From: a virus
Virus record (IMG/VR): IMGVR_UViG_3300045988_126932
Coordinates: 23,140 to 87,139 of that record
Length of the DNA: 64,000 nt
Direction: 5' to 3' (one strand)
This document shows positions 1,114 to 46,102 of this stretch, piece by piece. The translations under genes and the position numbers were made by a program. Position 1 is the first letter of the stretch. The number at the start of each line of letters is the position of its first letter. The notes below the pieces were generated by a model. That model did no database searches, was not told the DNA's origin, and saw only the letters and a program-made list of their open reading frames with translations.

Positions 1114-1752
1114 TTACTTCACTACATATATTTTTCTGTGCTGTTGCACATTTATTGTTTCGGAATGTGTTGATTTGAACACGTCTACATGCATTCCTTT
1201 TATTTTGCCTCCACAATCTTCTGCCACAAAGATTGTATCACCGTATCCCTCAATCTTAACTCTTGTTCCATAAGGGATAATGTTTTTATCAACCGCAATC
1301 GTATGATACGGTCGAGCAAATCTATGCCCTGCATGATTCCAAGCAATCTTAGATCCATATCCTTCAGAACATTCATAACATGGACAATATGCCGTGATCA
1401 AAAATGTTCCAAGTGAACTCTTTTCAAGTTCTTGCTTTCGCTTCAACCGCTGTCGTTTAATTCGCAATCGTTTCTTTCGAAGTTTTTCTAATCGAATCTG
1501 TCTTGCTTTCTCCTCATCAGCTTGCTTACATTTCTGATAATGCTCATGAACGTCTTTTAATTCAACGCTTTGACTGATTGGATTGTTTGAAATCACATTG
1601 CCTTGCTTATTTTCTGCAACAGTTGTCTCTGTTGATAAGGTTGAAGTCTCCACCGAGGGTCGCTCCTCTGCTTTAACCGTGTGAGTCATAAAGCCCGAAC
1701 ACATTGCTAAAAAACTAAACGAGACAACTTTCATTAAAAATCTTTTTCTCAT
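1114..1752 (-). CDS. secreted 3D-domain protein (MltA-like cell-wall-binding/lytic domain)
   Basis: There is a signal peptide (MRKRFLMKVVSFSFLAMCSG) and a C-terminal 3D-domain motif (TAYCPCYECSEGYG...IAVD...IPYGT...AEDCGGKIKG..VDVF). The start is set at the second ATG, after an AAGGAGA RBS; the first ATG is immediately followed by TGA. Confidence 0.6.
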   Translation of the reverse strand: MRKRFLMKVVSFSFLAMCSGFMTHTVKAEERPSVETSTLSTETTVAENKQGNVISNNPISQSVELKDVHEHYQKCKQADEEKARQIRLEKLRKKRLRIKRQRLKRKQELEKSSLGTFLITAYCPCYECSEGYGSKIAWNHAGHRFARPYHTIAVDKNIIPYGTRVKIEGYGDTIFVAEDCGGKIKGMHVDVFKSTHSETINVQQHRKIYVVK

Positions 1753-1772
1753 TTTCACATCTCCTTTCCTTA

Positions 1773-1832
1773 GCATATTGGTATCTTATCATACTTCTTG
1801 CACCCTGTCAATAGGTGCAAAGAATAAAGTTA
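1773..1832 (-). promoter_or_regulatory. conserved promoter/operator element, copy A (TTGACA -35 inside the palindrome TTGCACC-N9-GGTGCAA; -10 TAAGAT)
   Basis: The minus strand reads AAAAATTAACTTTATTCTTTGCACCTATTGACAGGGTGCAAGAAGTATGATAAGAT, followed by the AAGGAGA RBS of the 3D-domain gene. It is almost identical to copy B. Confidence 0.55.
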
Positions 1833-4103: not shown

Positions 4104-7100
4104 CCCCCTTCACTTTCTTAATATCTTCTAGCCATTGTTTATATGGTTTAATTTTCTTTGCGATAACCTTCTCGTCTGAATCTTTTCTGCATAACATCGC
4201 AATCTGATTTCCTTTGGCAATCATATCTTCATATTCTTTTAATTGCGAATGCCAGACGATTGCCTCAGTCAATCCAAAACTAGAATATAAATTCACATAT
4301 GCAAATGTCTTTTTATTTTTGTCTTTCTTTTTATCAACTTTAGCGATCACTGCAACCACAGTGCAATCATCTCCATTTTCAACATCTTGAAATTGTTTTG
4401 ACATATACTTGTATGCCTGATCAAATGGGTTATCGTTGATAAAGATTTGCAATGCTTCAAATTCCCAAAAATCTTCATTTTCAAGATATTTTTGATTCTG
4501 TGCGATAAATTTCTGAAATCGTTCTTTTTCCTTATCTTTGTACAATTCATACTTTTTATCGTTATAAGCTTTCAATATTGCATCTTTGTCGTAATCATAT
4601 TTCTTCTCACCTATACGGTAATCTTCAGCGTCAATATCCCATTTAATAAGTAATTGTTTGTAACTCGGTGCTTTTGCAACTGGCTTGAATGTTGTTGGCT
4701 GATACATAGATTTCAAATACTGAATTAAAGTTTTACGTTTATTCTTTGTTGGAATTGCACCTGCTTTGATCAACTGAATAACCTGTGATTTACTTGGACT
4801 AATACGTTTGCAAAAGTTTTCAAATCCTATGAATTTACCATTTTTATCACGGTCTTCAAGAATTACCTTTGCAATTTTTTCTCCAATACCACTGATAGCC
4901 GATAATCCAAACAATATATACACATCATCAATACTGAAATTCATCATTGATTTATTTAAGTTTGGTGGTAACACTTGAATCTTAAACGCCTTGGCATCAA
5001 GAATATATTTATTTACCATTCCTGCCTTATCTTTATTGCGATTCAATAAAGCTTTAAAGAAACATAATGCGTAATGCTTCTTTAAAAACGCTGTTTGTAA
5101 GCATAATACAGCGTAGGAGTACGCATGCGATTTGTTGAATAAGTATCCCCCTTTTTGGGATAGCGTCTCGCTAATCTGTTTTGCAATTTCTTCGGGGTAA
5201 CCATTCTCAATAATCTCATAATACAGCTTCTTAGATTCAGACTTCACAAGTTCGATATTCTTTTTACCAATCGCCTTACGGAATAAATCGGCTCCTCCAT
5301 AACTTCGACCACCAAATTTACGCACAATATCAAGTAATTGCTCTTGATAAATCATACATCCATACGTTTCCTTTAAGATCGGCTCCATATCTGGATGGAT
5401 ATATGTAATTTTCTCTGGGTGATGTTTATATTCAATGAATTCTTCCAAGACGTCCATTGCATCTGGTCTATACAATGCCAATACGGCAGCTAATTCTTCC
5501 ATATTTGATACCTGTAACCTAACCAGCAAGTCCTTCATACCAGCACTTTCGACCTGAAAAACACCATTCGTCATTGCACTACGCAATAATTCATATGATC
5601 CTTTATCCATTTCAAACTTTGGATTATTAATATTTACATCAAACTCAGTTAACCCTGCGTCAATTTCGGCTTCTTTTACAGTGTTTAATGTAGCAACACC
5701 CAAAATATCAAATTTGATAATCCCAATCTCTTCAACGATACGTTTATCTACTTGAATGACGTGTTCGCCATCAGTTCCAAGTTTCATTGCCATATAATCG
5801 CTAATATCTGTATCAACAATTCCTACACCACCTGCATGAGAAGATACTGTTTTGACTCTGCCTGCAAGATGTGATGCAACATCAAAAAGTTCTTCATATC
5901 TTGGGTTTTCTGCTAAATCTCTGTTATTCCACAAAGATTCTTCAATTGTGTCATATACGAATTTTTTACTTAATTTGTCCATCTCGTGATAATTGAACCC
6001 TAAGACCTTACCAACATCTTTGATTGCCACAATTGGAGTAATAAAACTGAAATTGATAATCTGGCATACTCTGTTTTCGCCATACTTATCGATCAAATAT
6101 TGGATAATCTCATCTCGTGTACCAACATCTGTATCTGTATCTGGCATTGAAATTCGCTCTGGATTTAAAAATCTTTCAAAAATCAGTCCATATTTGATAG
6201 GATCTAAGTCTGTAATTGTAATCGTGTAACACACCAAACTACCTGCACAACTACCTCGACCAGCACCAATTGGAATACCATTTTCTCTTGCAAAATTGAT
6301 AAAATCCCAAACAATCAAGAAGTATCCATCGAATCCCATTGAATGAATAATATCTAACTCATAATCAATTCTTTCTTTTCTGAGTTTCTGCTCATCTTCT
6401 GGTAATTTATCGAATCCTCGTTTTACCCACCCTGTATCAATCAGATACTTTAAATAAGAATAATTATCTTCAAATCCTTCTGGTAATGGGAAAGATGGTA
6501 ACTGAGGTGCTTGAAATGGCATGTGAATTTCATCAATTAAATCTGCAATCCTATCAGTTTCTTCAAGCCCTTTAGTCACTGCGTCTTCTCCAATTTGGCT
6601 ATCCATAATTGCATGAATTTCATCATCACATTGTAAATAACATCCTTCATAAATTTCCGCTGCGGTTTCAGTATCGTGAGCAAGCTTTACATGCCAGTTC
6701 TGATAATACAGGTCTTCTTTTCTAGCAGCATGACTATCAGTTGTGATAATGTATGGCGTCTTCGTGTCTTTGGAAAGCTGTATGATTTTCTGATTATATA
6801 CCACTTGATCCTGATGTGAATGTGACTGCATTTCTAAATAAAAATATGGAAAAATCTCTTTGTATTCACGAACATATTCAATACATTTCTGATAATCTGG
6901 CTCTCTGGCAAGTTTAGATGCCAAACAAGCACTACTCACAACCAGATCCTTAGCATATGGTTTCAACGCATTCAGATCAATTCGTGGCTTGTAGTAAAAT
7001 CCATGAAAATTTGAATCAGTTACCAATTGATTAATTGCTTTTCTACCATTCTCATTCTTTGCCAATACAATTAAATGGAAATATTTGCTATCCTTATTCT

Positions 7101-7326
7101 GTTCTGTCATATCAAAGCATTCATAAAATTCAACTCCAAAAATCAATTTAACACTTGGATATTTCTCATGAAGCTTATCATAATAGCACCAACTATACTC
7201 ATTGCCATGTTCTGTGATAGCCAGTGCTTTTAGTCCTATCTCTTCTGCTCTTTGTAAGTTTTCTTCAGGTAATGCATATCCATCTAATAATGAATAATGC
7301 GAATGTGTATGTAATGAACTGCTCAC
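4093..7326 (-). CDS. dnaE: DNA polymerase III alpha subunit (DnaE-type, PHP domain)
   Basis: The protein is 1077 aa and opens with a PHP-domain N-terminus (HTHSHYSLLDGY, ITEHGN). Its length and internal motifs fit Pol III alpha. The start is a GTG preceded by a GAGGTGA RBS. Confidence 0.85.
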   Translation of the reverse strand: MSSSLHTHSHYSLLDGYALPEENLQRAEEIGLKALAITEHGNEYSWCYYDKLHEKYPSVKLIFGVEFYECFDMTEQNKDSKYFHLIVLAKNENGRKAINQLVTDSNFHGFYYKPRIDLNALKPYAKDLVVSSACLASKLAREPDYQKCIEYVREYKEIFPYFYLEMQSHSHQDQVVYNQKIIQLSKDTKTPYIITTDSHAARKEDLYYQNWHVKLAHDTETAAEIYEGCYLQCDDEIHAIMDSQIGEDAVTKGLEETDRIADLIDEIHMPFQAPQLPSFPLPEGFEDNYSYLKYLIDTGWVKRGFDKLPEDEQKLRKERIDYELDIIHSMGFDGYFLIVWDFINFARENGIPIGAGRGSCAGSLVCYTITITDLDPIKYGLIFERFLNPERISMPDTDTDVGTRDEIIQYLIDKYGENRVCQIINFSFITPIVAIKDVGKVLGFNYHEMDKLSKKFVYDTIEESLWNNRDLAENPRYEELFDVASHLAGRVKTVSSHAGGVGIVDTDISDYMAMKLGTDGEHVIQVDKRIVEEIGIIKFDILGVATLNTVKEAEIDAGLTEFDVNINNPKFEMDKGSYELLRSAMTNGVFQVESAGMKDLLVRLQVSNMEELAAVLALYRPDAMDVLEEFIEYKHHPEKITYIHPDMEPILKETYGCMIYQEQLLDIVRKFGGRSYGGADLFRKAIGKKNIELVKSESKKLYYEIIENGYPEEIAKQISETLSQKGGYLFNKSHAYSYAVLCLQTAFLKKHYALCFFKALLNRNKDKAGMVNKYILDAKAFKIQVLPPNLNKSMMNFSIDDVYILFGLSAISGIGEKIAKVILEDRDKNGKFIGFENFCKRISPSKSQVIQLIKAGAIPTKNKRKTLIQYLKSMYQPTTFKPVAKAPSYKQLLIKWDIDAEDYRIGEKKYDYDKDAILKAYNDKKYELYKDKEKERFQKFIAQNQKYLENEDFWEFEALQIFINDNPFDQAYKYMSKQFQDVENGDDCTVVAVIAKVDKKKDKNKKTFAYVNLYSSFGLTEAIVWHSQLKEYEDMIAKGNQIAMLCRKDSDEKVIAKKIKPYKQWLEDIKKVKGVVA

Positions 7327-7337
7327 TAACTTTCACC

Positions 7338-9086
7338 TCAATCCCAAATATCTTCGTCTAATTCTTCATCTGCTGTAATGCTCAGAACATTAAGATCATC
7401 AACTGCAATTTGATATTGTCTAATACCATTAAAAATATTAGTTTGCGCAGTTCCTACTAATTCAAATGTAACTGTACCTTCGTCAGAGAAATCGTTCATA
7501 ATCCAATCATAGATTTTATTCTTCTCATCGCACTTGAACATCACGCATGGAATATCATTAATTTTAAATTGGATTGTGTCCATTTTCTTACCAACAACAT
7601 TAATCTCTTCCTTATTTAATGTAATATTCTTAACAGCGATCATCGGATCATCAATACCCTGCCCACGAATATCATCTAACTTAGACATTTCCTGTAGTAA
7701 CGCAAAGTCTAATCTGTAAGCATCTACGATGAAATCAACTCTATAAGTTGCATCATATTCAACATCTTTCAGTCTGTCGTTTAATTCTGTGATTGCTTCA
7801 GAGATATTATCTGTCGAACATCCAAATGCATTGGCGTGACCTTTTGCCCATAAAAATGAATTTGTCTCGGATATTACATCTTTCAAACTATCAATTGGGC
7901 TATGGTCTACATTCCTTGCACTACCACTCATTTCTACTAATCCTGTTTCTGGGTTAGTATGCTTTCGTAATAATAAGCATGGTCTGTTCATATCTTCAGC
8001 GATCTTGATAGCAACCAATCCTGTTAAACTGCTATCTAATGTTTCTGTAACATCAAGAATAGTAATCTTGCTATCTTTATCTTTTTCAGCCTCTTTCATA
8101 ATAATTGGAACCATCTTTTTCTTTTGACGATCCTGTTTGCCTTTGGCATTTTTGCATAATCGAGCAGCACGATCGTAAATGTTCTCTTTGATTACTTCCG
8201 CAGGATTGTTTTTTGTTGCTCTTTTCTTATAATCAAATACCTCATAGTCTTCGATAAATGCTCTAAAAACCAATTCTTTATCTTTCAAAGAACCAAATCG
8301 CACCATACCATTGATAATTGGAACGATATACCACTGAATATTATGAATATTAACAATACTGTGCATTGAATAATCTTGTGCATTGATCAGCGCTTTGAAG
8401 CATTCATTCTGAATATTCTGTATTCCTTTATTGACTAAACGACGTGTTTCAAAGGATCTCATATCCATCACATCACCAATATTGGCTAATGCACATAAAT
8501 CTAAATAATCATCTGCATAATTAATCCATAATTCATCATCCATTGCCTGTAAAAATCTATAGACAATCCCAGCCCCACATAAGTCTTTATTTCTATATCG
8601 TGGACTACACTGATTATTTACAATTACAACTTCCTCTGGCATTATTTCTTCAGATTCTTCTTTTTCATGGTGATCAAGAATTACAATCTGTACGCCACGG
8701 TCTACAAGTTCTGTACATTGTGCTACATCATTGGTGCCTGCATCTGGAATTATTAGAAGTTTCACGTCTTCAGGTATAGTAATATCTTCACTTAATCCAT
8801 GAGCTTTTGCTTTTTTATGTAATAAGTAACAAATGTTACTCTTACCATCATAAAGTTCATTATTAATACGATTTAAGTACATGTATGCCATTGAAGCTGA
8901 GCAAAATCCGTCTACGTCCTCGTCAATTAAAATACCGATTTTATGTCCATTTTCAAGTGCAAAAGTCGTTGTATTTACTGCGTTTTTGATACCATCTAAA
9001 TCGGCATAATCTTGAATTACGCTATCATCGAGGTTCAAATACGTTTTATAATCATCAATCCCTCTATTTCTTAAAATTTCTGGCAC
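7338..9086 (-). CDS. DHH-family phosphoesterase (RecJ-like)
   Basis: DHH motifs are present: IDEDVDGFCSAS, DAGTND and ILDHHE. The start is a GTG with a distant SD, so it is uncertain. Confidence 0.65.
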   Translation of the reverse strand: MPEILRNRGIDDYKTYLNLDDSVIQDYADLDGIKNAVNTTTFALENGHKIGILIDEDVDGFCSASMAYMYLNRINNELYDGKSNICYLLHKKAKAHGLSEDITIPEDVKLLIIPDAGTNDVAQCTELVDRGVQIVILDHHEKEESEEIMPEEVVIVNNQCSPRYRNKDLCGAGIVYRFLQAMDDELWINYADDYLDLCALANIGDVMDMRSFETRRLVNKGIQNIQNECFKALINAQDYSMHSIVNIHNIQWYIVPIINGMVRFGSLKDKELVFRAFIEDYEVFDYKKRATKNNPAEVIKENIYDRAARLCKNAKGKQDRQKKKMVPIIMKEAEKDKDSKITILDVTETLDSSLTGLVAIKIAEDMNRPCLLLRKHTNPETGLVEMSGSARNVDHSPIDSLKDVISETNSFLWAKGHANAFGCSTDNISEAITELNDRLKDVEYDATYRVDFIVDAYRLDFALLQEMSKLDDIRGQGIDDPMIAVKNITLNKEEINVVGKKMDTIQFKINDIPCVMFKCDEKNKIYDWIMNDFSDEGTVTFELVGTAQTNIFNGIRQYQIAVDDLNVLSITADEELDEDIWD

Positions 9087-9153
9087 AACATTAGAGGTAT
9101 CATTTGTGCCTCCTTCATATAATTTGTATTTTATATGTATAACCTTCCTGTTC

Positions 9154-10182
9154 TTATTTAAGTGTATACAAATAGTTGTTTAACAATAATTCCCATTTTT
9201 TAGGATCATCAGTAGGTGATTCTTTTTCATCAAGGATTCCTTCTTCTGAGTTATCCATAATGTATGAAATCGGAACTCCATCAATAAAACGATCGCCAAG
9301 CGTTTGAATCTCTTCTAACTCAACATCTTTGTCAAAAATAAATACTACTTCAACTCCGAGTCTTGTTAACATGTCAATTTGCTGTCTTGAAACTTGCTTG
9401 CCGCCAGTCGCCACAACATTTTGATATCCATATGACCATAGCTGCATGACAGCTTTTTCTGCTTCAGCAACATATACTCTTCCAGCCCTTTCTATATAAG
9501 GTAGAGTTTTATTCAATCCGTATAAGATTCTTTGTCTAGCGCATGGCTCAATATATAAATATTTCAAATCATGTTTATCTAACTCTTTCTTGAACAATCG
9601 TCCTTTAACACCTACCAAATCACCAATTTCAGAAAAAATAGGTATTGTAATTCTGTTTGTATCTTCGTCATAGCCAATATTAAATTCTTTCTGTGTTAAA
9701 TAAGTAATATGATCTTCATAAAACAGATCATTAACATAGTCCCTATAATAAGAAAGAATTCGTTTTGAAATTGGTTTGACTGGTTTATCTTCTTCGGTTT
9801 CTATATTTTCTTTCATATCATGAATCAATTGAGTGATCTGCAAACTTTCTGGCAGTTGCTCATTAAAATCATGATAATAATCTATGCCGATCAAATTGGC
9901 TAAATATTTTAAACCGTCTGGGAAAGACAGACTTTTTGTAAAGCATACCAAGTCAATTAAATCTGTCTGTCTTTCTTTTGCTGTCATTTTTCTTGTATAA
10001 TTTGTGCAATTTAGGTTTTCGTTGTTATATGTAATAACTGCGGATTCATTATCCCCATCTTTATTTGCGCAGCTCCAATATCCAGACGAATGATATTTAA
10101 TATGATGACAGCCTATATCTTTCAGAATATTTTCTACATAATTATTGTCGTATATATATTCTTTTAGCTGTGCTACATCCAT
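9154..10182 (-). CDS. DnaG-like DNA primase (zinc-binding N-terminus plus TOPRIM)
   Basis: A Cys/His cluster lies near the N-terminus, and the TOPRIM domain carries acidic motifs (VYVAEAEKAVM...VVFIFDKD). The ATG sits 3 nt after the helicase stop, so the two genes are probably coupled. Confidence 0.7.
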   Translation of the reverse strand: MDVAQLKEYIYDNNYVENILKDIGCHHIKYHSSGYWSCANKDGDNESAVITYNNENLNCTNYTRKMTAKERQTDLIDLVCFTKSLSFPDGLKYLANLIGIDYYHDFNEQLPESLQITQLIHDMKENIETEEDKPVKPISKRILSYYRDYVNDLFYEDHITYLTQKEFNIGYDEDTNRITIPIFSEIGDLVGVKGRLFKKELDKHDLKYLYIEPCARQRILYGLNKTLPYIERAGRVYVAEAEKAVMQLWSYGYQNVVATGGKQVSRQQIDMLTRLGVEVVFIFDKDVELEEIQTLGDRFIDGVPISYIMDNSEEGILDEKESPTDDPKKWELLLNNYLYTLK

Positions 10183-10185
10183 AAC

Positions 10186-11739
10186 CTACGCTCCGTTTTT
10201 CTCTCGTTTTATGACATATCCTATTTCGTCCCAAGTATTTAAATCCAAATTGATTTCAAAAATTGGAATAACATTCTTGTTACCGCCTCGGTTTTTATCA
10301 ACCTTAATACAGAAATATGTCTTGTCCTTTTTTAGATCGTGTGCCTGTGGCTCTCCCCAATCACTAATTGATATATACTGATATTTGTAATATTCGTCAG
10401 GATGTAATCTTTTACCAAGCATTAAGATGTCAGCAACGTGCTTAATCTGTTTTGCATTGGCAATATTATTACTACTTAGCTGGAATATATCTGTATACAC
10501 CGTATCATCAGTTAACTGGAATACAGAAAAGCAAAACATATGGATCTCTTTCATAAGTTCTTTAATTTTTGTGGCTGTCTGTTTCACTGTTTGCCAATCA
10601 TCAATACGATAACCTTTTAATGTGTCATAACCACAATATTTCACATCATATAACATACGATGTTTTCTAAATTCAAACTCTAATGCCGAATCTGAGTAAT
10701 CAGAGCCAACATCTTTGAAATATAATTTTCCTTGACGTTTCTGATCTACCCATTTTGCAACTTGCATAACTTTCTGAAACTCATCTGACGTAGTGGCTAC
10801 TCTATGTTTGTATTCCTCTTCTGTTTCAATAAAGTCTCCATTTTCATTTGTTTTTCTTTCAATCACATTGCCATTGTTATCTCTGTAAATACCAAGAACT
10901 ATTTCTTCTTCTGGCTTTTCAATATCAATCCCATGAAGCTCTTTGAAGCATTTGTTGTTGATTACTGTAACGACTAAACAATTTCGTAAATCGTCTTCAT
11001 CCATCTCATTACTGAGTAATAAAAATTTCTCGTCCATTGCCAATACGATATATGCAATCAACAACATCATATTTCTTGATTTTCCTTCATTACTTAAGAA
11101 TCCATTAAAAATTACCTTTCCAAGGCGACATCCTCTAAACATCTTATTGAGAATCGCCCAAGGTAACGGAATCCCTAAATCTGGTTTTGATAAAAATGAT
11201 TCAACCTGTGATTCAACACCACTATTCAATAAGACAGAATCTTCGCCTGCGCTAATCACAGTGTTAATTTTGTCTGCCTGAGATCGAATCACTCTATAAA
11301 TATCTTTTGCTTCCCATTTTTCAAATAACCTATGGTTTAAAATTCGTTGAACAGGATATCCATTTCTGTCATATTCTCTTACAAGAGAGTATTTCTTAAC
11401 GAGATTATAATATTTTTTAAAATCATCACAATCTGCAACCTGCATCCATGATGAAATTGTCTTCCACCCTTTGTATCTTTTGTATGTCCTAAGTCTTTCA
11501 TCTGATTGACTCATGAACATATTTACCTTGTCTTCCTCAATCGTCTGAGTAAATGTTTTGTACATAATCTCAAACATATCATAGAAGAATTTACATGCCT
11601 CATCACTGAAATCATACTGGCTTCTCATATATCCACCATAAGAAACATATAAATCTGGTTGTTTATACAAAGCACCGATAAACATCATTTCACTCTGAAT
11701 GTTAGTTACACTTTTACGTTCTACTGTTTCTTCTGTCAA
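10186..11739 (-). CDS. DnaB-like replicative helicase
   Basis: The N-terminal IQSEMMFIGAL resembles the DnaB N-terminus. There is a Walker A-like SNEGKSRNMMLL in a RecA-like C-terminal domain. Confidence 0.55.
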   Translation of the reverse strand: MTEETVERKSVTNIQSEMMFIGALYKQPDLYVSYGGYMRSQYDFSDEACKFFYDMFEIMYKTFTQTIEEDKVNMFMSQSDERLRTYKRYKGWKTISSWMQVADCDDFKKYYNLVKKYSLVREYDRNGYPVQRILNHRLFEKWEAKDIYRVIRSQADKINTVISAGEDSVLLNSGVESQVESFLSKPDLGIPLPWAILNKMFRGCRLGKVIFNGFLSNEGKSRNMMLLIAYIVLAMDEKFLLLSNEMDEDDLRNCLVVTVINNKCFKELHGIDIEKPEEEIVLGIYRDNNGNVIERKTNENGDFIETEEEYKHRVATTSDEFQKVMQVAKWVDQKRQGKLYFKDVGSDYSDSALEFEFRKHRMLYDVKYCGYDTLKGYRIDDWQTVKQTATKIKELMKEIHMFCFSVFQLTDDTVYTDIFQLSSNNIANAKQIKHVADILMLGKRLHPDEYYKYQYISISDWGEPQAHDLKKDKTYFCIKVDKNRGGNKNVIPIFEINLDLNTWDEIGYVIKREKNGA

Positions 11740-12431
11740 TCAAGTCCCTCACCAAAAATATCACTTAAAATATCATCCATGTTATCGTCTTGTGTGGCTG
11801 TTACTACAGTTTTTTGAGTTGTGATATTATTTGTTTCAACAAAAGATTTTGCAAATTTTTCATTATTCTTTTTGTCTACTTCATTTAATTTCTGTTTCTC
11901 TTTCCATCGTAAATAACTATCATACTTTCCTACTAAAACTGCCAAATCATAATTAACCTGGTGCGTTGGATTATCTTCATCCATCGTTCCTTTTTGTATC
12001 AAAAATGTTCGATTTTTCTTAAGATATTTCATTTGACGCTTCCACATATCTAAAAGATCACTTGGTGGAATTGGTTTCGCCAGACCACGATATGTACCTT
12101 TATAAATACTTTTCAATTTTGTAAAAACATATGCTGGTACAGAACCAATGTAGTTATAATTATCAAGAATAAACCGATATACTTTGTCTTCTAACAATCT
12201 TGGTTCAAGTAACACTCGTGCTTTCTGATTATATTCATCAATCTTAGACAATGCAGATAACCATTTGTCATGTTTAGTATTTTTGGATAATAATTTTGCT
12301 TCACACATTTTGCGGAAACATTCTTTGTGATAATAACTATTGTCATATTTAACAATCTCTTGCACTTTATCTAAATCAAGTTCAATTACTTCTTTACAAT
12401 AAGCGCATTTTACTGTTAAAACATCTGCCAT
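11736..12431 (-). CDS. zinc-finger protein, unknown function
   Basis: An N-terminal CxxC...HxxC motif (CAYCKEV...YHKECF) is present. The stop overlaps the next gene start. Confidence 0.4.
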   Translation of the reverse strand: MADVLTVKCAYCKEVIELDLDKVQEIVKYDNSYYHKECFRKMCEAKLLSKNTKHDKWLSALSKIDEYNQKARVLLEPRLLEDKVYRFILDNYNYIGSVPAYVFTKLKSIYKGTYRGLAKPIPPSDLLDMWKRQMKYLKKNRTFLIQKGTMDEDNPTHQVNYDLAVLVGKYDSYLRWKEKQKLNEVDKKNNEKFAKSFVETNNITTQKTVVTATQDDNMDDILSDIFGEGLD

Positions 12432-12510
12432 GCTACAGTTACTCCTCGTCCAATATCAAAGGATTAGGTAGCCAAAATGGCTACCACATAAACCCTTTTG
12501 TAATTTCACC

Positions 12511-13725
12511 TTATCCTTCCTGATCTTCTTTGATTTTTTTCACTAAGATTTCTTCAATCTTCTTTAGCTGATCAAGATCATTAAGACGACTAAAGGCGGT
12601 AGGTAATCCTTCTTTGGCGAGCTTATCTTTCATTTCCTGTCGTTTTGGAGGAGCTAATTTTTTGATTCTGTCAGAAATTCGTTTTTTTACATCCTGAACA
12701 GAATCTTTTTTACTAGATGATTCACTGGATGACACACCAGATTCTTCTTTTTCTGCTTCCTCTTCGGAAACTGGCTTACCTGCTTCTCCAAGAATTTCTC
12801 TCTTATAGATTTTCTGTTCAACATCTACTGCTTTTGTAAGAGCATTACCAAGTGTAAACTCTTTGTTTCCAACAGAATTATCAATAACTTTCTGCCAAGC
12901 TAACATCTGTGGATCTTCTACAATCTCGTTCTTTTTATATGTATGTGTTCTATCTTTCACTATCTGAGCACAAACCATGTCAGTTTCACTATCAACGAAT
13001 GTACGAATTACTGTTTTTGCGTTATAATCCATACCTTTAAATCCGTCAATAATCTTACGACCTGTCGTAACAGTTTCTCTTTTACCATCAATCATCTTAG
13101 ATTCTGTTTCATCTTTTTCTCTTGCTGTTACAACACAATGTGCTCCAGAAGCTAATAAATCAAGAATTAAATCCTGACCTTTAAAGTTTACAGTCTGGTA
13201 ATCTTTTAATTCCATACCTGCACCTTCAATCTTGACAAGTCTGGCTTCACCTGTCATATTTGCAGCATCCGCTTTTACACGATTTCTTTTCTTAGAGAAC
13301 TCAATTAATCCCTGTTTTGTAGTCAGATTTAAGATTGTTGATCCATCTACAACAATTGCGTCAGCTCTAAATGGAAGACCATCTGCGTCTAAAACTACAT
13401 CATCAGTTTCTTCTCCATCGTCATCAAGCTCGTAGAAGTCACCGTTTGTTTTAACTGTATCAATATAATGTCTTACTTCTCCTAAACTCTGAGTGTAAAC
13501 AATGTAAATGTTTTCGAGATTTACACCATTTTCCTCTAATTCTGGTAAATAATCATCAATACTTCCTGATTCAGAGTCTAAATATAAGACTCTGAAAGGT
13601 TTCCCATCTGGGCGTTTAAAATACGCTAACTGCATTGCCAGTGTACTTTTACCAGTAAAAGGTTCTCCATAAATAATAGTCATCAATTTACTCTGTGTTT
13701 TTGCTGCTTTTCTTGCTTTTGCCAA
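12511..13725 (-). CDS. Sak4-like / RecA-family recombination ATPase
   Basis: The Walker A motif GEPFTGKST is present. The protein is about 400 aa with an acidic, Ser-rich C-terminal region, which is typical of phage Sak4-like proteins. Confidence 0.55.
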   Translation of the reverse strand: MAKARKAAKTQSKLMTIIYGEPFTGKSTLAMQLAYFKRPDGKPFRVLYLDSESGSIDDYLPELEENGVNLENIYIVYTQSLGEVRHYIDTVKTNGDFYELDDDGEETDDVVLDADGLPFRADAIVVDGSTILNLTTKQGLIEFSKKRNRVKADAANMTGEARLVKIEGAGMELKDYQTVNFKGQDLILDLLASGAHCVVTAREKDETESKMIDGKRETVTTGRKIIDGFKGMDYNAKTVIRTFVDSETDMVCAQIVKDRTHTYKKNEIVEDPQMLAWQKVIDNSVGNKEFTLGNALTKAVDVEQKIYKREILGEAGKPVSEEEAEKEESGVSSSESSSKKDSVQDVKKRISDRIKKLAPPKRQEMKDKLAKEGLPTAFSRLNDLDQLKKIEEILVKKIKEDQEG

Positions 13726-36221: not shown

Positions 36222-36779
36222 TTATTCATTAATTACTTCAATTTGACACATTTTCATTGCTTCGAGTGCGTTCTTGTGACTCTCTGGTGTTACGCCTGCG
36301 CAGCACGATGCATCTACAGTAATCTTTGCCTCTGGTAATACCGATTTAATTAACATCGCATTTGAAATAACACAAATATCGGTACATAATCCAACTAATG
36401 TAATTTCAAGATCTGAAGCATATTTGTATTCTCTCCTAAAATGATCTGCTAATCTAAATGAACCAAATGTAGGTTTATTAAAATACCTTCTTACACTGTC
36501 AAATCCTCTTTCTTCAATAACTTTCAAAATATCTTTATTGATATACCATCCATCTTCAAGAAAAATACAATGTTTTACTGGTAGTTTTATTCCCTCTTGT
36601 GTATCTAAATAATCTTCATCATGTGTGTCTTTTGTTACATACAAATCTCCATCTTCATCAAAATTACGAATTTTCTCAACTACTTTAGGTACGATTTCTT
36701 GTGCCTCTTTCGTTCCTAAACTCCCATCAATAAAGTCATTCTGCATATCAATGACAACTAAAATTTTATTATTATCCAT
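36222..36779 (-). CDS. pncA: nicotinamidase (PncA, isochorismatase family)
   Basis: The N-terminal VIDMQNDF, a metal-site-like KDTHDED and KHC, and a catalytic Cys (GLCTDICV) together match PncA. Confidence 0.65.
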   Translation of the reverse strand: MDNNKILVVIDMQNDFIDGSLGTKEAQEIVPKVVEKIRNFDEDGDLYVTKDTHDEDYLDTQEGIKLPVKHCIFLEDGWYINKDILKVIEERGFDSVRRYFNKPTFGSFRLADHFRREYKYASDLEITLVGLCTDICVISNAMLIKSVLPEAKITVDASCCAGVTPESHKNALEAMKMCQIEVINE

Positions 36780-37265: not shown

Positions 37266-39335
37266 TTAAAATTTAATTTTAAGAACTCTTTCTGTTGCAC
37301 CCTTGACTTTGACGATCACATCATCTCGTTTTGTAGAACTGAAACCAATTCCTGATAACTGGTTCGGATCATCTGCGACATGCATCTTACTTCCTAAAGC
37401 CTCGAATACTCTCTTGTGCTGTACTAATTCCTGTTTCAAAAATTCATTAAAGAATCCATTTGGTGTATCTTCATTTACGCATCCGTTTAACATAAACAGA
37501 TAATGTTTGTGTCCAATACCTGTCTGTTCGTCCCAATAGTTAGGTGAATAACACATTACTGTGACTGGCACAAACTGATTTGTATTGATTCCCCAGATTT
37601 CTCTTGAAGATGTTGTTGATGGAAGTTTCTCTTTGATTGTGAATACTCCATCTTTTAATGTAACTGTAGCCACTGGCACGTTCTGCCCCTGTCTTAAATG
37701 CTGATCATATTCAAATTCGTAAATCTGACCATCAAATTCAATCTCGGCTGTAAATCCAGATGTACCATTGTTATGGCAATAATTGTGTACGAAAAAATCA
37801 TAATCTCCATCAACCATTTTAGATTTATCTGCCCATGTAATATTTTCTACGGCAGGTTTACCTTTTTCTGGATTAATTACATCAACATCAAGTCTGCCTT
37901 GTGTCACGTGATCAACCATATGGCTAAAGAAAATATGCTGGCAAGGTGTTTTACAATGTGCGTCAAAGTCATCTCTGTTCCAATCTTTTCCTGCGTTCCA
38001 CTGGATTGAGAATCTTAAGACTCCATCGACAGCTCCGCCTGCGTTCTTAACTCTTTCTTTCATTTCACTGTCTGTCATATTTCCTGAGTATGCCCAGCTG
38101 AAAGGATTACTCCACTTCATCATATTCTTAGCATCTTTATTTACAGGTGCGATCAGTGAAACCATGTTCTTTTTATGACGATTTTCAAACAAGACTTCTA
38201 ATTCTTTTGCGGTTGGAAGAACATCTGATACAAATTTCTCTGCACTGATCTCTTCTACTTTAGAGAATTTCTTAGGATTTACAGCGACTTCCTTACTCAT
38301 CTCATCAAAAATATCTAAACCGCCCTGGATACGTGGTGCTGCATCACGATTACAAAACAGAATATTGTTTACTGTAATATCGTCAAGTCTTGCAAATCTA
38401 CGCTGCAATGAATCCATATATCCTAAATCGGTTACAGTTTTCTTTGCATCTTCAAGCATTTTCTTTGTAAAGATTGCTTTAGGTCGTTTGTAATTCGCAG
38501 GAGCTACAACATTTTCATAAGCTTTTACTGCATTATCTAAATCCATACCTTCGCTGATATTCACAAGTAATGTACCGATACTATGGTTTCTAATACGACC
38601 AATTACATCTCCGATCGTCATGGCTTTTGTCCATGTGTATGCATCTTTTTCTTCATCTGACAAACCGTTGTATTCTCGCTGATATTTTCTAAAATCTTTT
38701 AATACTCTTTCCCATTCCTGTCCTCTATAAAGAGTATTTGAAGCGATCAATTCTAATACCGTATCAACAGCTTCTTCTGTGATTTCATCAAGCGATCTTT
38801 TGAACACGTTCTTTCGATCTCTAACTTTTGCTTTTACTGTAGGAATATCGGATTTTCTTTCTAGTAATCTCTCTGGAATCGGTGTATACATATGAGTCCA
38901 TTTGATAATCTGCTTATCTTCTGTATACTCATTTGTACTTTTTACTCCAACTGTATTTGTAAAATGTCTCCAAATATCTTTGATTGGCTTTGATTCTACA
39001 TATGTTCGTAAAGCATCAACTACTGGCTGAAATACGACATCATCAGTGTCGATTTCCCAGATCGTATGAATCTTACCGTCAACAATTGCCACAGCTCCAC
39101 CGATTGTTTTAATAAAGTTTCGGCAATGACCACAGTCATATTCTCGTCGTTTACGATACATTTTGTTTGTTCCTTCAGGGAAACTGCTCAAATATACTTC
39201 CCAAAGCTCATCTTTATCAATATCAGTTTCATACAATGTAGAATTGTTTTTCTCTACATAGTCGAGCATTTTATTTAAACGCTCTGACAATTTGTTTAAA
39301 AAATTGCTCCAGTTTTCATTCATTGGTGTGCACAT
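37266..39335 (-). CDS. large hypothetical protein (689 aa)
   Basis: Long uninterrupted ORF with no recognisable motif. Confidence 0.45.
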   Translation of the reverse strand: MCTPMNENWSNFLNKLSERLNKMLDYVEKNNSTLYETDIDKDELWEVYLSSFPEGTNKMYRKRREYDCGHCRNFIKTIGGAVAIVDGKIHTIWEIDTDDVVFQPVVDALRTYVESKPIKDIWRHFTNTVGVKSTNEYTEDKQIIKWTHMYTPIPERLLERKSDIPTVKAKVRDRKNVFKRSLDEITEEAVDTVLELIASNTLYRGQEWERVLKDFRKYQREYNGLSDEEKDAYTWTKAMTIGDVIGRIRNHSIGTLLVNISEGMDLDNAVKAYENVVAPANYKRPKAIFTKKMLEDAKKTVTDLGYMDSLQRRFARLDDITVNNILFCNRDAAPRIQGGLDIFDEMSKEVAVNPKKFSKVEEISAEKFVSDVLPTAKELEVLFENRHKKNMVSLIAPVNKDAKNMMKWSNPFSWAYSGNMTDSEMKERVKNAGGAVDGVLRFSIQWNAGKDWNRDDFDAHCKTPCQHIFFSHMVDHVTQGRLDVDVINPEKGKPAVENITWADKSKMVDGDYDFFVHNYCHNNGTSGFTAEIEFDGQIYEFEYDQHLRQGQNVPVATVTLKDGVFTIKEKLPSTTSSREIWGINTNQFVPVTVMCYSPNYWDEQTGIGHKHYLFMLNGCVNEDTPNGFFNEFLKQELVQHKRVFEALGSKMHVADDPNQLSGIGFSSTKRDDVIVKVKGATERVLKIKF

Positions 39336-42055: not shown

Positions 42056-42421
42056 TTAGTTGAAATTTTTAGTTTGTGTGAAAGTAGAAGTTTTACCAAA
42101 GACTTCTGCTTTCTTTTTTATTGTCTGTATTTTTATGCCAACATTGTATCTCTCTTTGTATGTAAATTGCAGGCATTTGATTATGTCAAATATGTCGTCC
42201 TGCCTAATATGAGAGAACAAATTCTCATCTTGAATAAATTCGATCCAATGATATGAAAGATCTTTATCTTTGCCATAGATCTTCATCTTTCTATCATCTG
42301 CTCGAATCTTATATTCGCTCAGAAACCACGATGACATTTCTGATGAGTGTAAATCAAGTACATCAATATGCATTTGATTTGATTGATTCGCTGCTAACAT
42401 TTCTAATATTTGATTGTCCAT
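42056..42421 (-). CDS. hypothetical protein
   Basis: 121-aa ORF. Confidence 0.4.
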   Translation of the reverse strand: MDNQILEMLAANQSNQMHIDVLDLHSSEMSSWFLSEYKIRADDRKMKIYGKDKDLSYHWIEFIQDENLFSHIRQDDIFDIIKCLQFTYKERYNVGIKIQTIKKKAEVFGKTSTFTQTKNFN

Positions 42422-42435
42422 ACATATACCTTCCT

Positions 42436-43464
42436 TTATTCTGCCATTATTTGATGTGCACGATAATTCTTATAGTCCTCGTCTTTATATAGGTAACCAA
42501 TACTTTTACCGATTACCGTTTGACGATCGCTAAATTGTTTCTTTTTTATTCTATATGATATATAATAATTATAATAAAAATCAATTGCAATATCACTAAA
42601 TTGACGTGCGATTACAGATCGTGCGATTCCTTCTTTTGATTTAATATAATATAAATCTGCAATTGCCTTGATATCCATTTTAGATTTTAAATATTGTATA
42701 AAACCAGAATTAATAACATCAATGGTTGTCAATTTCTCATAAGATAAAGTGTTACCAGTTAATTCTAATTGAGACTGCACATTATTATAGATCCTCTTTT
42801 GCTCTGCTTGATATTCTTCTATATTATTACATTTTTTTCGTGGTATTAATACAAAATCATCATATATATTCGTATCTCCCATTTTCAATTTATATTCATT
42901 CAATGTCTCGATAAAATCTTTGGAGACTGGTTTCCCAAGAATTGTTAAATCATTTTGATTAATATCTGAGAATTTTAGATTTCTTAACTCCTTTCCATTT
43001 ATCCCATTATATAAACTCACAATGTGAAATCTAGTATTCAATTTGGTATCGGCTGATGCATTGCACGACATCAGATTCGAAATAAACGCATTTATTTTAT
43101 CTGGTGTAACATAATTAACATTAACTCTATTTGAAAAATATATATCAACTGCTAATTGCAAGTTTATAAATTTATCATTAACAAATGGATTATATTTAAT
43201 GTAATTTTGTTCATATGCATAAGTATATAGTTTAACGAGCTGGTCATATCTTTTTTTAATAGAATTCATACTTTTGGTTTTTTTACCTCTAGTATCTGAT
43301 AATATAGCCTCTTGGATTGTACCTGGTGCATACGTTAACCCAGATTCATTGTCGTCCGCAATATCAGAATCTAACAACCAATTCCATGTTGGGCGACGTG
43401 ATTCTGATACGTGAGAATCTATATAATTTTGTATCAATTCTTTATTATTCATAATATTCTCCAT
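42436..43464 (-). CDS. hypothetical protein, possibly a divergent tyrosine-recombinase-like protein
   Basis: The segment LYNGINGKELRNLKFSDINQNDLTILGKPVSKDFIETLNEY resembles the box-I region of integrases. No clear HxxR/Y box II is visible. Confidence 0.3.
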   Translation of the reverse strand: MENIMNNKELIQNYIDSHVSESRRPTWNWLLDSDIADDNESGLTYAPGTIQEAILSDTRGKKTKSMNSIKKRYDQLVKLYTYAYEQNYIKYNPFVNDKFINLQLAVDIYFSNRVNVNYVTPDKINAFISNLMSCNASADTKLNTRFHIVSLYNGINGKELRNLKFSDINQNDLTILGKPVSKDFIETLNEYKLKMGDTNIYDDFVLIPRKKCNNIEEYQAEQKRIYNNVQSQLELTGNTLSYEKLTTIDVINSGFIQYLKSKMDIKAIADLYYIKSKEGIARSVIARQFSDIAIDFYYNYYISYRIKKKQFSDRQTVIGKSIGYLYKDEDYKNYRAHQIMAE

Positions 43465-43466
43465 TT

Positions 43467-43916
43467 CTAGGATGCCATTGCATTCATGTACGATAACATG
43501 CCGTTTTGTATTAAAATGCCATGTCCTATTTTTAACATTAAAGATAGATCAGATATTCTTCCCCAATACTCTAAAAGATTATTCTTTGGAATTGTTCTTC
43601 CTTGCTCTAAATACACCTGTGATACCATTTTTAATCCATTACTGGTATTTGGATAAATGGTTACATGTGTCGGTATCCAGTTCCTTAATTTTTTTGTAAT
43701 TGGATACACGTTAATCTCTGTGCTCGTATTATTACAAATATTATTAGAATATACGATGACTGGTCTTTTCCCATGCAAGATATGACTACCTTCAATTTTC
43801 GGCAAATCTGCAAAATATATTCCCCAAACTTGAGGATTTTGATATTTGCCATATACATATTCTTTTCTTTTTCTGTTATCGTTTCCTTTTCTTTCTTTGT
43901 TAGTATATCCGTTCAT
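43467..43916 (-). CDS. PemK/MazF-like toxin-fold protein
   Basis: The pattern GIYFADLPKIEGSHILHGKRPVIVYSNN...VYPITKK...PTHVTIYP...SQVYLEQGRTI resembles PemK/MazF. The start is set at an ATG after a GAGGGA RBS; the track start at 43976 lacks an SD. Confidence 0.4.
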   Translation of the reverse strand: MNGYTNKERKGNDNRKRKEYVYGKYQNPQVWGIYFADLPKIEGSHILHGKRPVIVYSNNICNNTSTEINVYPITKKLRNWIPTHVTIYPNTSNGLKMVSQVYLEQGRTIPKNNLLEYWGRISDLSLMLKIGHGILIQNGMLSYMNAMAS

Positions 43917-43966
43917 TTTTACGTCCCTCAACTTTCCCCAGTTGCATTTTTTGTTTTCATGAATTA

Positions 43967-44026
43967 AATATACCATACTTTTTGCACCCTGTCAATAGGT
44001 GCAAGAAAGAAAGTTAATTTTTGTTG
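43967..44026 (-). promoter_or_regulatory. conserved promoter/operator element, copy B (TTGACA -35 inside the palindrome; -10 TATATT)
   Basis: The minus strand reads AAAAATTAACTTTCTTTCTTGCACCTATTGACAGGGTGCAAAAAGTATGGTATATT, upstream of the MazF-like gene. Confidence 0.55.
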
Positions 44027-44076
44027 TGAACAAAGAATCTCTACATTTCTTATTATAATGCTACCATAGAACAAAA

Positions 44077-44397
44077 TCAAGATGTTTTTCGAACAGATGT
44101 TCTCTTTTTGTTCGAACACTTTACTTTGTGCTTACTTGGAAGGGGGAAATACTGTCTAACTTTATGAGGCTTATCCAGTTTCCATTTCTTTTCTTCAAAA
44201 TCATAGTCACAAAAATCAAGCACTTCGTCCACACATCCATCATTATATTTGTAATCCACAATAACAGGATATGTTTTATACCTCATGTAACGTGATGCAT
44301 TATCTGGTTTTAATGGTGGAATCTCTGCTGAAATCCACATAAGATTCTGGTTTGCTTTCTTTTCTTCCTTATTTTGTCTAATCGTATTTATCTTCAT
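44077..44397 (-). CDS. hypothetical basic protein
   Basis: 106-aa ORF. Confidence 0.4.
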   Translation of the reverse strand: MKINTIRQNKEEKKANQNLMWISAEIPPLKPDNASRYMRYKTYPVIVDYKYNDGCVDEVLDFCDYDFEEKKWKLDKPHKVRQYFPLPSKHKVKCSNKKRTSVRKTS

Positions 44398-44408
44398 ACA
44401 AAATTCTC

Positions 44409-45155
44409 CTATAAAATCCTAATAATTTGTTCGTAAATTGCAATCGCATTATCTCCTGGAAAGTTCTGGTTCACATGCATATGCCCAAAGAACCATTTTT
44501 GATAAATCACTTTGTCTTTTATTTGCTGTAAATAATCCGTTAACTTGTCAGATTTGTACACTCCTGATCCTTGATCCATTTGTCTTAAAACAGATGTGTA
44601 TGGACTATGTGCAATAACGTAATCTACTTGGAAGTCATTTTTCTCTAAATTCATCACACCTTCTGCCATCTCTTTATCAGATGGCAATTCTTCTTTCCAC
44701 CAGCTCACATGATTAATCCTAAACATTTTGTCATAATCTCTGTACCATTCATTAATTCTTGGATCGTCTGGCTCTAAAATTCCATCTTGCACATCATGGG
44801 AACTGGCACCGCCAAATGTAAAGAATTTCTTTCCTTGAATTTCAAACACCTGTCCACGCATAAGATGAAATACAGAGTCTTTGATCTTGTGAATCTTTCC
44901 GCCACACCATTTCTCTACAGGATATTGATATAAGCGGTCGTAATTTTCATGATTCCCACATACAAACAATGTAGTAAATGGCTTGTTATCTAACCATTCC
45001 AGATTATATCGTTCTTCTTTTGTGTCATGCCACAGTCCAAAATCTCCGCAGATAATCACATAATCATCTTTGGTTAACTCAACTCCCTCTTGGAAAGAAC
45101 GACTGTTTAATCGAGTCATCCAATCCCCATGTGTATCTCCTGTTACAAATATCAT
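44409..45155 (-). CDS. calcineurin-like metallophosphoesterase (lambda-PPase-like)
   Basis: The motifs GDTHGD, GDFGLW and GNHEN are present. The ATGA overlaps the integrase gene. Confidence 0.75.
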   Translation of the reverse strand: MIFVTGDTHGDWMTRLNSRSFQEGVELTKDDYVIICGDFGLWHDTKEERYNLEWLDNKPFTTLFVCGNHENYDRLYQYPVEKWCGGKIHKIKDSVFHLMRGQVFEIQGKKFFTFGGASSHDVQDGILEPDDPRINEWYRDYDKMFRINHVSWWKEELPSDKEMAEGVMNLEKNDFQVDYVIAHSPYTSVLRQMDQGSGVYKSDKLTDYLQQIKDKVIYQKWFFGHMHVNQNFPGDNAIAIYEQIIRIL

Positions 45156-46102
45156 ACAATGACTCCTTCCAATAACTCTTCTAATGCCTGCATATTATCT
45201 TCATGTACTCTATCATCTTGATCTGCATCATCTTTGCCAGTCTTATAAGCAAACTTGATAATCTCCATAACTCTATCATAACTCACATTAACAACATTTT
45301 CCTTCAATCCGTTAAAAGCCCCACTGATAATTTCCTTGTATGTCTGCGCAATATCATCAAACAATACATGAGTTTCTTCCTCTGTGATTGTTGCATACAG
45401 AAATGTCATTGCAGGGCTACTATGATTCAATAATCTCATAAGTGTATACAATACGTTCTGATCATCTTTATGATCGACAAGTGTCCAATACACAAAGTTC
45501 TTTCGTAATGTATGCGTACCAATATTGTCCTCAATTCCAACTGCTTTAGCACCTTTTTTAACAAAATCCAAAGCATTTGCTTCAGTCATGTGTCCTGATC
45601 CAGACTTACATGTTCCAAAAACATAATCATCCATTGGCACTTCGCCATCAATCTTGACATCATATTTAGTTCCTGCAACAGCTTCAAAGAAAATATCCAC
45701 TGCTTCAGTTACCAAATCGTTAAAGTATACAGTTCTGAATTTCTTTGTTTTCTTTTCCTGCTTACGAGTCTTATCGTCTAATAAATCGCCCCATTTGAGT
45801 CTGACGATATCAGAGATACGATATGCTGTATTGTTTCCAACTGCAACCAAAAGATTGTTTCTGGCAGCTACATATCGTTTGTACTCTGTGTACGATTTAT
45901 CAATCTGGTCTCTAAAATATGCATTAAAGGCTGCAAATTTTTCTTTGTTCTTAATTGGATACACTAAAGATGATACGCCTTTTTGTTTATTAGATCGAGT
46001 CCATTTAGGATTTCCGTCCTTACGTCTTTTGATCTTTGCTTCAGGTTCTTCTGCGTTATTATTGTTTGCTGTTTTAATAACTTCAAACTGTGTTGCTGCC
46101 AT
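45152..46102 (-). CDS. tyrosine site-specific recombinase / phage integrase
   Basis: Box I (YRISDIVRLKWGDL), box II (HTLRKNF) and LNHSSPAMTFLYA, which carries the catalytic Tyr, are all present. Confidence 0.75.
   Translation of the reverse strand: MAATQFEVIKTANNNNAEEPEAKIKRRKDGNPKWTRSNKQKGVSSLVYPIKNKEKFAAFNAYFRDQIDKSYTEYKRYVAARNNLLVAVGNNTAYRISDIVRLKWGDLLDDKTRKQEKKTKKFRTVYFNDLVTEAVDIFFEAVAGTKYDVKIDGEVPMDDYVFGTCKSGSGHMTEANALDFVKKGAKAVGIEDNIGTHTLRKNFVYWTLVDHKDDQNVLYTLMRLLNHSSPAMTFLYATITEEETHVLFDDIAQTYKEIISGAFNGLKENVVNVSYDRVMEIIKFAYKTGKDDADQDDRVHEDNMQALEELLEGVIV

Follow-up and report, generated by a model that had tools for sequence, protein, structure and literature searches.

Repressors built on the fold of tyrosine recombinases were recognised between 2021 and 2025, in Bacillus SPβ-like phages only. 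MrpR (YopR) of SPβ no longer functions as a recombinase and binds a repeated element, SPBRE, in about ten promoters, among them the yopM promoter, which belongs to its own operon, and that of yorM, a gene with a cell-wall domain that lies straight after the polymerase gene (PMC10516654). SroF of phi3T encircles a 26-base-pair (bp) box as a monomer and is inactivated by Sar, an antirepressor under the control of LexA; the two co-evolve as pairs (bioRxiv 10.1101/2025.11.27.690993). In the case of phi3T, the ribonuclease activity of the host MazF promotes lysogeny; MazF is released from MazE by a protein of the sro operon and is inhibited by AimX and YosL (PMC10769878). The authors of the MrpR study suspected that recombinases have been recruited as repressors more widely (PMC10516654). 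Here we describe a locus within a stretch of 64,000 nucleotides (nt) of the viral record IMGVR_UViG_3300045988_126932 (positions 23,140 to 87,139 of that record, hereafter the window), in which a MazF-like gene and the gene of an integrase-like orphan of 338 amino acids (aa), p338, lie in one operon. On balance, and with slightly better than even confidence, we read it as a repressor cassette of the MrpR/SroF kind that includes a phage MazF and resides in a large (~160 kb) gut phage distantly resembling SPβ. The initial annotation had suggested that the module could be a novel one, resembling neither a standard toxin-antitoxin pair nor a standard integrase. A lack of precedent could not be upheld, as integrase-fold repressors are known from SPβ and phi3T (MrpR/YopR/SroF; PMC10516654, bioRxiv 10.1101/2025.11.27.690993) and MazF activity has already been tied to the lysis-lysogeny choice of SPβ-like phages (PMC10769878).

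Lineage-specific operators and an exchanged cassette

All genes of the window lie on the minus strand across 64 kb. Three of them form an operon and are found where they had initially been annotated: the MazF-like gene (149 aa, 43467..43916), p338 (338 aa, 42436..43452) and p121 (121 aa, 42056..42421), the product of the last having a helix at its N terminus and then a beta structure of seven strands. Both intergenic gaps, MazF/p338 and p338/p121, measure 14 nt, and each gene has a separate ribosome-binding site. Upstream, the 160 nt that separate MazF from an open reading frame (ORF) of 106 aa contain two tandem minus-strand promoters. P1 (44052..44080; TTGATT, 17-nt spacer, TATAAT) is part of the conserved backbone. 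It does not vary among five aligned lineages, and transcription from it runs into P2 and MazF. P2 (43967..43995; TTGACA, 17-nt spacer, TATATT with extended TG) agrees with the consensus at 11 of 12 positions. The palindromic operator promoter that had been proposed for the module was confirmed: a perfect inverted repeat with 7-bp arms, TTGCACC-N9-GGTGCAA (43982..44004), is centred on the -35 of P2, and the G of TTGACA marks its axis.

Six lineages were compared, namely the window and relatives designated L001, L004, L005, L009 and L052, over about 20 kb of each ~160-kb relative. The -35 and -10 of P2 are invariant in all six, and in each of them an inverted repeat flanks the -35 with its axis always on the same G. 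The arms are lineage-specific and complementary: TTGCACC and GGTGCAA in the window, TTGACAC and GTGGCAA in L001, CTTTATCTGC and GAAGATAAGG in L004, CTTTAAATGC and GCATATAAAG in L052, AACTAAAC and GTTTAGTT in L005, and (A)TTACCAATC and GATTGGTAA(T) in L009. Over the six lineages, such a repeat surrounds the -35 more often than is seen with shuffled flanks, at a combined p of ~1e-4 when perfect arms alone are counted.

In a given genome, the window-type element, which with its dyad spans ~45-50 nt, is found at promoters of three classes. Besides the MazF promoter, these are the promoter of a cell-wall peptidase gene, 42 kb downstream, and that of a 122-aa gene, ~27 kb upstream and beyond the window. 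The second copy of dyad operator and promoter (1798..1820, ~50 nt shared) drives the peptidase gene at 1114..1776 (minus strand), which follows polymerase and helicase genes and encodes a protein of 220 aa that has a signal peptide and matches L-alanyl-D-glutamate (M15-type) peptidase families. In the five genomes of the L052 lineage, whose backbone otherwise shows 90-100% identity with the window, all three promoters bear CTTTAAnTGC...GCAnnTAAAG arms in place of the window type, reading CTTTAAATGC...GCACATAAAG at the peptidase gene, where one base of the arms differs, and CTTTAAGTGC...GCAGTTAAAG at the 122-aa gene. Genomes mixing operator types were not found among ~45 contigs. The same lineage-specific arms switch jointly at three distant promoters, and therefore a trans-acting factor with lineage-specific specificity is required. 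The other TTGCACC half-sites of the window are intragenic and at chance level.

Two further observations concern these promoters. At the third class (e.g. L068 2075-2095, and L200), the gene of a 112-122-aa protein is followed by a variable gene of ~290 aa. In a single strain, L036 (IMGVR_UViG_3300045988_122050, ~9440-9480), the MazF promoter is swapped for a class-A promoter/operator (CATTGCACCCGTTGACAAGGTGCAA); thus recombination occurs among dispersed operator-bearing promoters.

The extent of the exchanged unit could be read from the nucleotide alignment of the window with L052. Identity is 40-83% within ~44060..42430 and 90-100% on either side, and the divergent block runs from just past the -10 of P1 to the stop codon of p338. 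At the protein level, MazF is 71% and p338 57% identical between these two lineages, and the flanks give 94% for the integrase, 93% for the 106-aa gene, 92% for p121 and 99.5% for a 216-aa gene. Synonymous divergence (dS) is saturated (>1) inside the block, versus 0.17 for p121. The P2 operator, MazF and p338 (42430..44060, minus strand) are old alleles that were moved jointly by recombination, like phage immunity regions, and p121 is external to this cassette. The three-protein unit initially annotated is in this respect redrawn as operator, MazF and p338. As a whole, the gene order MazF-p338-p121 is kept in all six lineages, and the 106-aa and phosphoesterase genes come and go. Lambdoid immunity regions (cI, OR/OL and the co-transcribed rexAB) offer a similar picture, in that genomes otherwise alike exchange repressor and operators as a co-varying cassette and the repressor shares its transcript with an exclusion or toxin function, as here. 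The repressor fold, the operator layout and the toxin family differ.

Operator similarity tracks p338 similarity. L004 and L052, which share 73% identity in p338, have related arms (CTTTAnnTGC in both), and so do the window and L001 (66%; TTGCACC vs TTGmCAC). In the case of L005 and L009, p338 is 33-49% identical to the others and the arms are unrelated. No tracking of operator type was seen for the class-A 122-aa and ~290-aa genes, nor for two further divergent flanking genes of 439 aa and 185 aa (52% and 64% identity between the window and L052). This pattern points to p338 as the probable binder of the dyads.

A second dyad, AGAACATCTGTTCG (44090..44103), lies 11 nt upstream of the -35 of P1. 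It is the sole GAAC-N4-GTTC of the 64 kb, a single occurrence being unremarkable as 37% of shuffles have one. Its two half-sites are the same in every lineage, even in L005, which lacks the overlapping 106-aa ORF. AGAACATCTGTTCG matches the consensus of the Firmicute LexA (Cheo) box, CGAAC-N4-GTTCG. The conservation of AGAACATCTGTTCG argues for a possible control of P1 by LexA. A perfect palindrome, TGTTCGAACA, is also seen 6 nt upstream of AGAACATCTGTTCG in the window, with one-base variants in L001 (CGTTCGAACA) and L004 (GTTCGAACAA).

p338 and the phage MazF

The 342-aa ORF that was initially annotated is present, but its start is most likely at codon 5, giving 338 aa, with MNNKE as the start in all homologues and a GGAG site ahead of it. 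Homologues of p338 form 7 clusters among 5.8 billion proteins, and an exhaustive profile search of 1.84 billion representatives returned 5 matches, of which 2 were full length. No match was obtained for the 342-aa ORF by exact-protein lookup, or for the DNA of the region among 50,697 phage records. In IMG/VR, p338 was found at 47 loci, on contigs of up to 169 kb.

Several weak, concordant signals tie p338 to the tyrosine recombinases and suggest that the catalytic residues have been lost. PHROG 1 ('integrase') matches p338 with an E value of 8e-10 (1e-14 for the best of its relatives; three of nine family members match), and PHROG 216 matches two of the nine. The Pfam family Phage_int_SAM_5 remains below threshold (18.4 bits, cut-off 22.3); PF00589 gives no match for the p338 of the window and an E value of 0.015, below the curated threshold, for two of the nine relatives. 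The segment LYNGINGKELRNLKFSDI aligns to box I of XerA and XerD, with Asn replacing the catalytic Arg, and this Arg position varies over the p338 family, Arg being found in no member. In a weak hhalign alignment to E. coli XerD, Asn152 falls on R148 and Lys174, alone invariant among the catalytic positions, on K172. Neither an HxxR nor a Tyr box could be aligned in the family, so that the box-I-like segment and the lack of a clear HxxR/Y box were both borne out. When the p338 family was aligned with the integrase of the window, YopR and XerD by hhalign, only the box-I stretch aligned, weakly. At the structural level, the top Foldseek match is the Tn1549 integrase, and the matches include integrase core-binding domains, MrpR of SPβ and SroF of phi3T. 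p338 would then consist of a core-binding domain and a degenerate catalytic domain, and we predict it to be the repressor of the dyad promoters and, possibly, a partner of MazF.

The MazF-like protein starts at the ATG at 43916, which has the ribosome-binding site GAGGGA ahead of it. The 149-aa reading is correct because the start of the alternative 169-aa reading would fall within the -10 box of P2 and because the frame of the ATG upstream in the 5' untranslated region varies, through an A4/A5 run, between near-identical strains (98-100% identity). This length polymorphism, at 43917-43925 and in relatives, also alters the distance from the ribosome-binding site to the ATG. A pairing of the 5' untranslated region with an upstream CUUUC stretch was considered and dropped, being unconserved in other lineages.

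Assignment to the MazF family is supported at several levels. PemK_toxin (PF02452) matches with 57.2 bits (cut-off 23.1; E value 2.3e-15; residues 51-143 of the 169-aa reading), and PHROG 1936 ('MazF-like growth inhibitor') with an E value of 3.7e-15. Solved MazF/EndoA structures (4hke, 4mdx, 4mzm) match over ~110 residues at E values of 3e-10 to 2e-8, the best covering 113 residues, which confirms the MazF fold proposed at the outset. The PemK/MazF-like motif first noticed in this protein has the right pattern, with one reading error: its 'GSE' is actually 'GSH' (EGSHILHGKRPVIV). Arg51 and Thr74 align to the catalytic R25 and T48 of B. subtilis MazF, T48 having a role in the ribonuclease activity (PMC10769878). 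The catalytic Arg is invariant throughout the family, and the Thr position holds Thr, or Ser in L005. The family is small (14 clusters), and all members share an MNGYT start and a basic N-terminal extension of ~30 aa. A ratio of non-synonymous to synonymous divergence (dN/dS) of 0.07-0.09 indicates strong purifying selection. Judged from its intact catalytic residues and this conservation, MazF is very probably an active endoribonuclease. Phages frequently carry solo MazF-like genes, examples being lytic Lactobacillus Herelleviridae and gut phages. The solo members of PHROG 1936 (Lactobacillus phage Lpa804 gp074, NatCom gut phages) resemble the present gene as phage MazF homologues without MazE. 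They differ from it (33-44% identity) in that it has the conserved basic N-terminal extension and the fixed cassette of operator, MazF and p338.

Comparison with SPβ-like phages and rival explanations

The resemblance to SPβ extends beyond the operon. A replication module (1830-13683, minus strand) follows the order of SPβ yorG-yorL, with genes for a Sak4-like protein, a DnaB-like helicase, a primase, a RecJ-like exonuclease and a DnaE-type polymerase, after which comes the gene of an ExoV/Dda-like helicase. Of these, the DnaB-like, primase, RecJ-like and polymerase proteins are homologous to, and encoded in the order of, YorI, YorJ, YorK and YorL, with 22-35% identity. In SPβ, the integrase gene yopP is followed by yopQ and then by the integrase-fold repressor gene yopR, of the sro operon. 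In the window, the gene of an intact tyrosine recombinase (316 aa, 45152..46102, minus strand; R/HxxR/H/Y all there; PF00589 E value 1.3e-13) lies three genes upstream of the operon, is 70-95% conserved among lineages and parallels, with p338, the pair yopP/yopR. Two of the three dyad promoters sit where the MrpR-bound yopM and yorM promoters sit in SPβ. Like MrpR and SroF, p338 has a length in the range of ~320-340 aa, a putative integrase-like architecture of core-binding and catalytic domains with the catalytic residues lost, and a gene that follows that of a true integrase, all genes of the operon pointing one way, in a large phage whose replication module is of the yorI-L type. Common to both are also an element repeated in several promoters, including those of the own operon and of a cell-wall gene that follows the polymerase gene, variants that are allelic and specific to a lineage, and a functional link to MazF. 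There are differences, too. p338 has no detectable sequence homology to MrpR or SroF, and the host is a gut bacterium here versus Bacillus there. Regarding MazF, the ribonuclease is coupled in phi3T to the repressor (sro) operon and the lysis-lysogeny outcome, yet it is the host's protein, released by a phage protein that binds MazE, whereas the phage of the window carries its own MazF gene, co-transcribed with p338.

The following mechanism would account for these observations. p338, a recombinase derivative without catalysis, would repress in a sequence-specific manner as MrpR/YopR/SroF do, by binding the lineage-specific dyad that is centred on the -35 in at least three promoters, strong and of the sigma-A type, those of its own operon, of the peptidase gene and of the 122-aa gene. 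Because MazF is the first gene of the operon that p338 would control, its dosage would be set by p338 autoregulation, and additionally by the backbone promoter P1 behind the LexA-box-like dyad. By analogy with phi3T, the phage MazF would most likely dampen lytic or host expression, or exclude competitors, while the repressor operon is on. If this is the case, the same repressor logic would operate in a family that cannot be recognised by sequence, seen on ~50 viral contigs from the human gut, the longest of 169 kb. Two near-identical backbones with different p338 alleles, and with different arms at all three operators, would amount to a natural specificity swap, and the lineages would offer a ready-made orthogonal set of repressors and operators. 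Additionally, a phage-owned MazF within the repressor operon would make the link between MazF and lysogeny testable beyond Bacillus.

Several points speak against this interpretation. The model of p338 is poor (mean predicted local distance difference test score, pLDDT, of 56), and its fold matches are at the level of domains only. Homology to YopR was not detected, as hhalign gave a probability of 0.3 against SPβ YopR and tblastn of p338 against the 50,697 phage records matched neither YopR/SroF nor anything else. The dyad is short and centred on the -35, in contrast to the asymmetric box of 15-26 bp that is bound by a monomer in the case of MrpR and SroF. A small gene downstream of p338 that co-varies with it as Sar does was not found (p121 92% and the 216-aa gene 99.5% identical vs 57% for p338), and the only Cheo-like box is the one upstream of the MazF operon. 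Arbitrium genes (AimR/AimP) were not detected, ten upstream ORFs being without a Pfam match. No relative of YosL was found, and hhalign of p121 against YosL was negative. Another regulator, outside the ~20 kb compared per relative, could co-vary with the operators. MazF is sited between operator and p338, and its co-transfer may be hitch-hiking and is no proof of an interaction. Finally, two scans of 185,579 species genomes found neither p338 nor the integrase, and lysogeny itself is accordingly a presumption.

The explanation that comes closest is a type II toxin-antitoxin (TA) pair in reverse order, with MazF as toxin and p338 as a large DNA-binding antitoxin that would neutralise MazF and autoregulate through the dyad, the pair serving addiction of an extrachromosomal prophage or abortive infection. 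We regard it as rather doubtful as an account of its own; it overlaps with the repressor cassette, and both could hold together. An addiction or abortive-infection role, which was already put forward at the outset, is possible. In its favour are the 14 nt between MazF and p338, the latter with its own ribosome-binding site, and a spacing that is tight or overlapping in all lineages; a dyad operator over the promoter, as in TA autoregulation; and the joint exchange of MazF and p338, of which p338 evolves faster, as is usual for antitoxins. RelE/helix-turn-helix (HTH) and Phd/YoeB pairs exist in related phages, and MrpC/MazF-mx is a precedent, disputed, for a transcription factor other than MazE acting on a solitary MazF (PMC4803016). 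MazEF and PemIK (Kis-Kid) share with the locus a MazF/PemK-fold toxin with catalytic Arg and Thr, a palindromic promoter operator and a tight operon. They differ in having MazE or PemI (AbrB-type/ribbon-helix-helix, RHH), whereas the partner here is downstream, of 338 aa and integrase-like, and the operator is common to unrelated genes. The canonical mazEF/pemIK arrangement has a small antitoxin gene directly upstream; the MazF locus has promoters there instead. The initial remark that there is no small antitoxin gene holds to the extent that no MazE/PemI/RHH/AbrB-type gene lies beside MazF and that no small ORF near it, upstream in sense or in antisense, is conserved among relatives; small flanking genes do exist, of 106 aa upstream (without a family match, and missing in L005) and of 121 aa downstream. 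Scanning the module for Rfam families, tRNAs and tandem repeats gave nothing, and on this ground there is no ToxI-like RNA antitoxin. None of the three operon proteins had a match in PADLOC (E value <= 0.1) or NCBIfam, and an antitoxin-type fold or family was detected neither in p338 nor in p121, which weighs against the pair. So does the finding of the operator at two distant and unrelated genes, uncommon for the autoregulator of a TA pair, as well as the frequency of partnerless MazF-like genes in phages and the fact that the co-transfer of MazF may reflect its mere position. A combined version, in which p338 is both an integrase-fold immunity repressor and the cognate antitoxin of MazF, is to our mind tentative at best. 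If true, immunity determinant and TA pair would reside in one swappable cassette, and when the repressor is lost or titrated, MazF would be released and the regulon derepressed together, coupling heteroimmunity, exclusion and the lysis-lysogeny decision.

Three further accounts carry less weight. The module could belong to the early host takeover of a strictly lytic phage, in which MazF degrades host mRNA straight after infection and p338 shuts three early promoters. The near-consensus promoters of host type, the classification of phage MazF-like genes as host takeover in PHROG, solo MazF in lytic Herelleviridae such as Lpa804 and the empty scan of species genomes fit this account. We nevertheless deem it distinctly unlikely in view of the intact integrase, the Bro-N/ANT and P22-type antirepressor genes nearby, the conserved LexA-box-like dyad ahead of P1 and the allelic, anciently diverged repressor-operator cassettes, which typify temperate-phage immunity regions. 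Alternatively, p338 could be an accessory factor (arm-binding, directionality or site selector) of the neighbouring integrase, and the dyads recombination sites of the core type. The module does adjoin the integrase, an arm of 7-11 bp followed by a 9-bp spacer and a second arm recalls recombinase core sites, and TnsF of Tn6022 shows that an inactivated tyrosine recombinase can serve as DNA target selector (PMC10293859). TnsF is indeed similar to what we propose for p338, as a catalytically dead derivative co-opted purely for sequence-specific DNA binding, but it is part of a transposon targeting complex with zinc fingers and is no promoter-bound regulator. At three dispersed genes, the dyad axis falls exactly on a consensus -35 that has its -10 at the proper distance, which makes the site-selection role suggested initially a poor fit. 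The sites are direct copies, gene order is stable over ~50 contigs with no rearrangement seen, and the integrase stays 94% conserved despite the swap of p338 and the sites, so that we give this account very little credence. Equally improbable to us is that the inverted repeats are cis-acting hairpins, in the P1 RNA or in single-stranded DNA, unrelated to p338. RNA folding does predict a hairpin, and the arms stay complementary while varying by lineage, a C-to-T change in L050 retaining a G-U pair. The RNA hairpin or terminator was dropped because the fold is no more stable than that of shuffles (z = -1.2), no T-run follows it, and lineage-specific arms recur and switch jointly at three promoters tens of kb apart, of which a local structure has no need.

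Neighbouring genes

Upstream of the operon follow the 106-aa ORF, a metallophosphoesterase gene and the integrase gene. The metallophosphoesterase gene (44409-45155, minus strand), sited between integrase and 106-aa ORF, varies as an indel; the window, L001 and L009 have it, and L004, L005 and L052 do not. Its product has a weak match to the PADLOC candidate PDC-S10 (E value 7e-10).

The RelE/HTH and Phd/YoeB toxin-antitoxin pairs are found among Bro-N genes, 6-9 kb upstream of the integrase, in L004 (1031-1677 and 3732-4241) and L005 (308-954 and 2982-3491), and are missing from the window lineage and L001. Further along the window, a 689-aa protein (37266-39335, minus strand; DUF8224, PHROG 1735 with an E value of 7e-263) is 92-96% identical across lineages. 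A cluster for NAD+ salvage and synthesis (33117-36779, minus strand) comprises genes for an NAD synthase (33117-33887), a NAMPT/NAPRTase (33905-35374), a 278-aa protein and an isochorismatase-family protein (36222-36779), and it resembles the NAD+ modules known from gut jumbo phages (PMC11662467).

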